This document shows, in pieces, positions 2,517-2,669 of a stretch of 64,000 bases of DNA. The DNA is from Neisseriales bacterium (GTDB lineage Bacteria > Pseudomonadota > Gammaproteobacteria > Burkholderiales > Q3-R57-64): positions 256,671 to 320,670 of the forward strand of contig CP064990.1 in assembly GCA_016699915.1 (NCBI GenBank). The letters run 5' to 3'. A model generated the notes under the pieces. The model worked only from the letters and a program-made list of their open reading frames with translations, was not told where the DNA came from and searched no databases. Both the position numbers and the translations under genes were made by a program. The number at the start of each line of letters is the position of its first letter. Within the stretch, counting starts at the first letter, position 1.

Positions 2517-2669
2517 GGCTGTAGCAGGTCCCAAGGGTATGGCTGTTCGCCATTTAAAGTGGTACGTGAGCTGGGTTTAAAACGTCGTGAGACAGTTTGG
2601 TCCCTATCTGCAGTGGGCGTTGGAAGTTTGACGGGATCTACTCCTAGTACGAGAGGACCGGAGTGGACG
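2517..2669 (+). rRNA. orphan fragment (~150 nt) of 23S rRNA, domain V 3' strand to the domain VI sarcin-ricin loop; not a functional rRNA gene
   Basis: The read is GGCTGTAGCAGGTCCCAAGGGTATGGCTGTTCGCCATTTAAAGTGGTACGTGAGCTGGGTTTAAAACGTCGTGAGACAGTTTGGTCCCTATCTGC...CTCCTAGTACGAGAGGACCGGAGTGGACG. This is near-identical to the conserved bacterial LSU rRNA sequence I know, with the A-loop GGCUGUUCGCC and the SRL AGUACGAGAGGACCGG at 2646-2661. No other rRNA sequence flanks it. Confidence 0.85.

Follow-up and report, generated by a model that had tools for sequence, protein, structure and literature searches.

Organization of the locus

The window, i.e. the whole 64-kb stretch of DNA that was analysed, carries a short piece of 23S rDNA located between protein genes. 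On the plus strand, orf163 (1537..2028) and orf201 (1991..2515) precede this ectopic fragment (2517..2669), which is followed by a 42-nt spacer (2670..2711) and by a truncated MFS transporter gene (2712..3329). All of them face the convergent gene dnaK, located on the minus strand (3586..5532), which was used as an anchor for finding relatives.

The gene orf201 encodes 174 aa from the ATG at 1991, the longest ORF beginning at the TTG at 1910. Depending on the start codon chosen, it overlaps by 38-119 nt the 3' end of orf163, which is always found upstream of it. The product of orf201 has one N-terminal transmembrane helix and a coiled coil. Both genes are clade-specific: among 5.8 billion sequences, they are confined to a small clade, with 2 protein clusters. 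Searches of Pfam and PHROG gave no match for orf163 and, for orf201, coiled-coil noise and weak matches to Rz-like spanins (E 3e-4). Within orf201, 55 nt (2291-2345) differ at 3 positions from the ENA contig L086, whereas elsewhere the identity with this contig is about 72%. This stretch, which encodes 18 residues, is either a very constrained peptide or an element acting at the nucleotide level.

The C-terminus of orf201 is kept to its final residue in the two lineages A and B described below (...EEASAE / ...EEVSSE), and its stop codon is therefore native. The rDNA fragment begins 1 nt past this TAG (2513-2515), or 1-2 nt past it if the ambiguity of the junction is counted. Indeed, bases 2515-2516, i.e. 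the G of TAG and one variable base (A in the window, T in the sister organism), can be read either as the first two bases of the rDNA (GGGGCTG in rrl) or as junction bases.

The MFS gene starts at the ATG at 2712 and encodes 205 aa that cover positions 1-167 of the 347 positions of Pfam MFS_1. Its product is identical (100% over 205 aa) to the NCBI protein P0125, while the sister carries a full-length version of 390 aa. It should be stressed that the MFS gene of the window is a pseudogene, despite its annotation as a gene in the NCBI record. About 250 nt of leftover sequence (3330..3585) separate it from dnaK and hold the terminator hairpin of the latter (3488-3451, minus strand).

Two ORFs of this region were discarded. 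The ORF 2490-3329 (+), in frame with MFS, is spurious and, in the sister, its frame is closed by a TGA two codons before the ATG. The ORF 2468-2677 (-), which overlaps the fragment, is a by-product. The preliminary description, which was made from the letters of the window, had already considered both of them as artefacts of the rDNA. The only promoter-like match, at 2677-2705, whose end is 7 nt away from the ATG of MFS, was also discarded as implausible.

Scans for terminators between orf201 and MFS, and for a convincing promoter within the fragment, gave nothing. Since neither a terminator nor a convincing promoter belongs to the fragment itself, its transcription is probably passive, in sense orientation and as part of the predicted orf163-orf201-(MFS) message.

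Identity and extent of the 23S rDNA fragment

Positions 2517-2669 of the plus strand are a 153-nt piece of bacterial 23S rDNA, which corresponds roughly to positions 2527-2673 of the E. coli molecule. This piece includes the loop and the 3' strand of H91, the A-loop helix H92, H93, the 5' strand of H94 and the complete sarcin-ricin hairpin H95. The Rfam model LSU_rRNA_bacteria (RF02541, gathering score 50) recognizes it with 63.3 bits at 2498-2598 when the whole window is scanned, and with 112.7 bits (E 5e-35, model positions about 2557-2703 of 2925) when applied to 2440-2760 alone. BLASTN against 5,426 complete E. coli genomes aligned exactly 2517-2669 with the 23S gene, with 90.8% identity. 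In the same way, alignments with the 23S sequences of Neisseria, Niveibacterium, Ralstonia and E. coli all start at 2517 and stop at 2669, the flanks being abruptly non-rRNA. The 23S similarity that the preliminary description had recognized by eye, directly after the TAG and with an abrupt end around 2669, is therefore real and strong (96.7% identity with Neisseria), and its limits are those found by BLASTN and by the four alignments.

A full-length LSU gene has about 2.9 kb, paired long-range helices and an rrn context, which are all lacking here. The local hairpins H92, H93 and H95/SRL are intact; half of the helices of the fragment have no pairing partner, and its stand-alone folding compared to that of shuffled sequences is unremarkable (z = 0.79). 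Furthermore, the Rfam scan of the 64-kb window detected no rRNA family beyond this single LSU match on the plus strand, ARAGORN found zero tRNA genes in it, and the window contains no further copy of the fragment. The rest of an rrn operon is thus missing around the fragment, as had been noticed previously.

Origin of the rDNA

The host DnaK is closest (80% identity) to those of Neisseriales (Laribacter, Chromobacterium and Aquaspirillum) among the GTDB representative genomes, and the host is an uncultured Neisseriales-like betaproteobacterium. The fragment shares 96.7% identity with the 23S of N. gonorrhoeae, 95.4% with that of Niveibacterium, 94.8% with that of Ralstonia and 90.8% with that of E. 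coli, the Neisseria reference being taken from two N. gonorrhoeae chromosomes misfiled in a plasmid collection. Over two runs, 2527-2635 and 2641-2669, the fragment does not differ from Neisseria-type rrl. In particular, the diagnostic stretch TGCAGTGGGCGTTGGAAGTTTGACGGG is an exact match between Neisseria and the fragment, while Niveibacterium, Ralstonia and E. coli each deviate from it. Since this stretch is shared with Neisseria-type rrl, the fragment belongs to the taxonomic type of its host.

An exact scan with the 36-nt core GTCCCTATCTGCAGTGGGCGTTGGAAGTTTGACGGG, which contains TGCAGTGGGCGTTGGAAGTTTGACGGG, found at least 120 metagenomic contigs. All of them carry full-length rrl and none of these matches is an ectopic copy. 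With the rrl of Neisseria and of metagenomes serving as proxies, the donor would almost certainly be the own rrl of the host lineage.

Gene order in related organisms

Contigs of relatives were reached by protein searches with DnaK, orf201 and MFS. The sister of the window organism is represented by two Logan contigs from the sample ERR4010616, L087 and L082, which were assembled independently. L087 carries M3 peptidase-ThiF-methyltransferase-nadD-metY-metA-orf161-orf174. Its last ~38 nt are the beginning of the fragment, whose left junction is that of the window (...GAATAG/T/GGCTGTA...). L082 opens with the last 30 nt of the fragment, followed by the same spacer, MFS and dnaK-grpE-ispH-lspA-ileS. 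Both contigs break inside the fragment, as can be expected of an assembly made with k = 31 at a sequence shared with rrl genes.

The source of the window is apparently a MAG, and rRNA pieces are classic material for misassemblies. However, the probability that the fragment results from an assembly chimera or from MAG contamination is negligible: both junctions recur in L087 and L082 with a species-level divergence (0.26 at four-fold degenerate sites), which excludes a chimera, and the fragment carries private mutations that are foreign to 115 real rrl (see below). As the junctions are common to the window organism and its sister, the insertion predates their split. These two organisms, which share the order orf201-fragment-MFS, constitute the lineage A.

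Lineage B includes the Logan contigs L213 and L214 and the JGI contigs L083-L085, with a DnaK identity of 88%. Its gene order is nadD-metY-metA-MFS-dph-orf163h-orf201h, followed by the convergent dnaK, and its contigs have no LSU match anywhere. The MFS gene is therefore downstream of orf201 in lineage A and upstream of orf163 in lineage B. The fragment lies exactly at the new orf201|MFS junction, i.e. at the breakpoint of synteny between A and B. Homology between the two lineages upstream of MFS restarts about 6 nt past the end of the fragment, from about position 2676 of the spacer, and the MFS gene of lineage A has lost its native upstream region. The comparison of relatives that had been suggested for this locus thus reveals a gene order that differs precisely at the fragment, the relatives with the other order having no fragment. 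In the same way, the fragment was not found at 80 other betaproteobacterial dnaK loci from GTDB genomes.

In a third lineage (L092), MFS is located between ThiF and a peptidase fragment, without rDNA. More precisely, positions 1-3829 of this contig (ENA ERZ19029970) carry ThiF, a truncated MFS and an N-terminal portion of the M3 peptidase. Within the clade, MFS seems to have been relocated repeatedly.

By parsimony, the order of lineage B would be close to the ancestral one and that of lineage A would be derived. If instead the order of A came first, lineage B would need to have cut out the fragment together with MFS, starting precisely at the left edge of the fragment, and then to have put back MFS only.

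The position of the fragment at a synteny breakpoint could also be expected if an entire rrn operon or a large part of rrl had once lain here, for example after a recombination between two rrn, and two later deletions had reduced it to 153 bp. The locus is indeed prone to deletions, as metY-metA and half of MFS were lost in the window and 2.2 kb were lost in L083 compared to L213. However, the relatives show no other trace of rRNA, tRNA or 5S at this locus, and the sharp ends of the fragment adjoin intact sequences, i.e. a native stop codon on one side and the 5' region of MFS on the other side. Furthermore, such a history needs the gain of an operon and two precise deletions, as opposed to one composite event. 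An operon relic is therefore unlikely. Of the earlier proposal of a fossil left by an rrn-mediated rearrangement or deletion, the part that fits the evidence is a non-functional remnant, with private GC->AT changes, located at a gene-order breakpoint; nothing points to a mediation by rrn or to a former operon.

Search for traces of mobile elements

Another possibility is that the fragment is foreign DNA, i.e. the remnant of a mobile element or phage that carried rDNA, due to an imprecise excision from an att site in rrl or to a co-conversion by a homing endonuclease near L2593. The weak PHROG matches of orf201 to Rz-like spanins could be read in this way, as could the presence in the fragment of AAAACGTCGTGAGACAGTTTGG, which is the homing site of I-CreI type. 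However, the spanin matches are explained by the architecture of orf201 (transmembrane helix and coiled coil), and orf163 and orf201 occur without the fragment in lineage B and therefore did not come with it. The list of ORFs includes no integrase, transposase, intron or homing-endonuclease ORF near the fragment. A search for repeats found neither terminal repeats nor target duplication at the fragment, but only short and weak repeats. Lastly, scanning viral contigs for exact matches gave nothing, and those matches in phage records that are annotated lie under full 23S genes, which is consistent with contamination by host rrl, so that no ectopic copy was found in either source. With this, a mobile origin is highly improbable.

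Private substitutions

Four bases of the fragment, A2526, A2636, T2637 and A2640, are found in 0-1 of 115 full-length rrl drawn from the metagenomic matches of the core scan. The difference at position 2525 is a natural polymorphism among real rrl. Scanning metagenomes with the window-specific H94/H95 variant gave no match, which indicates that no real rrl carries these private bases. The sister copy has two other private changes, G2524A and C2668T. All six changes (four in the window and two in the sister) are GC->AT. The genome has a GC content of 42%, and this GC->AT bias is the spectrum expected of unconstrained DNA. One of these changes, G2640A, preserves a pair of the H95 stem (G.U -> A-U).

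The four private GC->AT substitutions, foreign to real rrl, indicate that the fragment is decaying. The preliminary description had proposed either decay or a lineage-specific variant for the unusual helix segment around 2625-2640 (GACGGGATCTAC). Each proposal turns out to be right for a part of it: A2636, T2637 and A2640 are private and due to decay, while GACGGG is normal in Neisseria-type rrl.

Rate of change of the fragment

The comparison between the window and its sister is limited to 68 sites at the ends of the fragment, the middle 85 nt being missing from the sister contigs. Six of these 68 sites differ, versus 145 of 551 four-fold degenerate sites (0.26) and 9 of the 42 nt of the adjacent spacer; under a binomial model, the chance of a count this low at the ends of the fragment is P = 3e-4. 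In the window lineage, the 153 nt have accumulated 4 private changes versus 11-20 expected, and a run of 109 nt (2527-2635) is unchanged. Substitutions in the fragment are therefore 3-5 times slower than in the neighbouring four-fold sites and spacer, and the fragment does not behave as a neutrally decaying rRNA pseudogene. Reading it as a decaying fossil is right with respect to its private substitutions, but wrong if it implies free decay, considering this rate. Of the six changes, four either fall no more than 12 nt from an end or set apart the last 29 nt.

The likeliest explanation of this slow decay, with Neisseria and metagenomic rrl taken as proxies for those of the host, would be gene conversion by rrl copies. 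Gene conversion spares the mismatches close to the edges of a homology, which fits the location of the differences.

A rate below the neutral one is also compatible with purifying selection on the fragment. In this case, the fragment would be a functional element, either a mimic of the A-loop and SRL carried by the orf201-MFS transcript or a site acting as DNA. As RNA, it could titrate or recruit a modification enzyme, a translational GTPase, an SRL-cleaving toxin or a ribosomal protein. Besides the rate of substitution, several features would agree with this: H92, H93 and H95 have stayed intact, the change G2640A maintains a pair of H95, and the fragment reads in the sense direction, like the two genes that flank it, with no terminator in between. 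A more specific version would be an RNA module made of the A-loop and SRL, included in the orf163-orf201-MFS transcript and selected as a decoy or docking site for a 50S factor. If true, this would explain a core that remains unchanged beside a neutral divergence of 26%.

However, gene conversion is favoured over selection for several reasons. Lineage B has the same genes but not the element, which is likewise missing from the 80 other betaproteobacterial dnaK loci. The neighbouring genes encode no rRNA-binding protein, the flanking proteins have no RNA-binding domain, and MFS, the next gene downstream, is present in the window as a pseudogene. The changes all follow the mutation bias, as in unconstrained decay. 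Lastly, the fragment folds freely no better than shuffled sequences, and the partners of half of its helices are missing. Considering all this, a selected function of any kind is very unlikely, and the decoy or docking module has a slightly lower probability still. The speculation about a decoy or mimic that accompanied the discovery of the fragment thus finds no positive support.

Proposed insertion and subsequent evolution of the fragment

Taken together with the gene orders, these data make it reasonably probable that the fragment is a non-coding and most likely non-functional ectopic copy of a 3' portion of rrl, which was introduced as filler at a rearrangement junction and later reset by gene conversion. 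According to this proposal, the MFS gene would have been relocated in the ancestor shared by the window organism and its sister (lineage A). During a single composite event, 153 bp of the own rrl of this ancestor would have been caught, as filler or templated DNA, at the upstream orf201|MFS junction. Afterwards, the fragment would mutate under the AT-biased pressure of the genome, while RecA-type gene conversion from functional rrl would repeatedly reset its interior. The surviving differences would then be found mainly near the edges, and the fragment would look far younger than its age.

The presence of such a fragment has several consequences. It is a trap for annotation and assembly, as illustrated by the two spurious ORFs and by the short-read contigs of the sister, which are interrupted within it. 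Ectopic recombination with rrl genes could also start from it. Furthermore, it provides a clean and datable natural case in which a short segment of rDNA has been placed at the junction of a bacterial rearrangement and apparently kept young by gene conversion. Complete genomes would permit estimating the shortest homology tract that is homogenised, as well as the AT-biased mutation spectrum of this lineage.

Comparison with known systems

The fragment is an ordinary partial rRNA pseudogene, which is unusual only in its slow decay. Annotation pipelines flag partial rRNA genes as too-short rRNA predictions. Like other bacterial rRNA pseudogenes, it is rDNA found outside an rrn operon, its long-range partners are missing, it yields no functional rRNA and it carries private mutations. 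Unlike them, it is very short, sharply bounded, located at a breakpoint, present in two species and less diverged than expected.

Template-switch models of the MMBIR/FoSTeS type yield templated insertions. Capture of linear fragments at double-strand breaks has been reported in yeast (PMC1976456), and filler DNA is found at T-DNA junctions (PMC8395108). As in these cases, a short stretch copied from elsewhere is found here at a novel junction, without target duplication or any feature of a mobile element. However, these precedents are mainly eukaryotic, whereas the mechanism proposed here is deduced from comparative anatomy, with an ambiguous microhomology at 2515-2516. In the literature on orphan 23S fragments, rRNA pseudogenes and filler DNA, no direct bacterial precedent was found.

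The pattern of divergence also recalls the concerted evolution of rrn operons: the interior is identical to functional rrl, the edges diverge and the rate is far below the neutral one. The difference is that the recipient would be a non-functional fragment of 153 bp instead of a full operon.

Some mRNA leaders mimic rRNA, for example those of ribosomal-protein operons, and the autoregulation of ErmC involves an mRNA site resembling its 23S target. The fragment shares with them an rRNA-like sequence in the sense orientation on an mRNA. However, known mimics are short structural look-alikes located upstream of genes of rRNA-binding proteins and conserved together with them, whereas here 153 nt of near-identical rDNA lie beside a transporter pseudogene and are missing next to the same genes in relatives. 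Its neighbours encode an MFS transporter and a protein with a transmembrane helix and a coiled coil, and lineage B has these genes without the fragment. If its slow decay were nonetheless due to selection, which is unlikely, the fragment would represent a new type of rRNA mimic.

Gene erosion around the locus

Besides the rDNA fragment, the locus is a hot spot of gene erosion, by deletions, frameshifts and truncations, in every lineage of the clade. In the window, a deletion scar (1433..1578) lies where, in the sister, about 2.5 kb with metY and metA separate nadD from orf163. These genes, which encode a PLP-dependent enzyme of Cys/Met metabolism and a homoserine O-succinyltransferase, are present in the sister at positions 4507-7045 of L087. 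Their loss by the window organism is recent and touches methionine biosynthesis.

In lineage B, the contigs L083 and L213 are 96-98% identical, but L083 has a 2.2-kb deletion (L083 12056-12202 versus L213 8151-10375) in which dph and orf163h are gone and 48 aa of orf201h remain as a stub (P0128). The presence of the clade-specific genes thus varies within a species. L213 also carries, downstream of MFS (8376-8541), a 168-nt remnant that resembles the 3' end of the metA of lineage A (72%), and its metY (4449-5743) is split into two ORFs.

The contigs also include an unusual relative of dnaK. The betaproteobacterial (FACS189488) assembly GCA_026000675.1 encodes a hypothetical protein of 952 aa (P0001, L081 768-3626) with two HSP70 regions, which reflects either a partly duplicated or fused dnaK or a mis-assembly.
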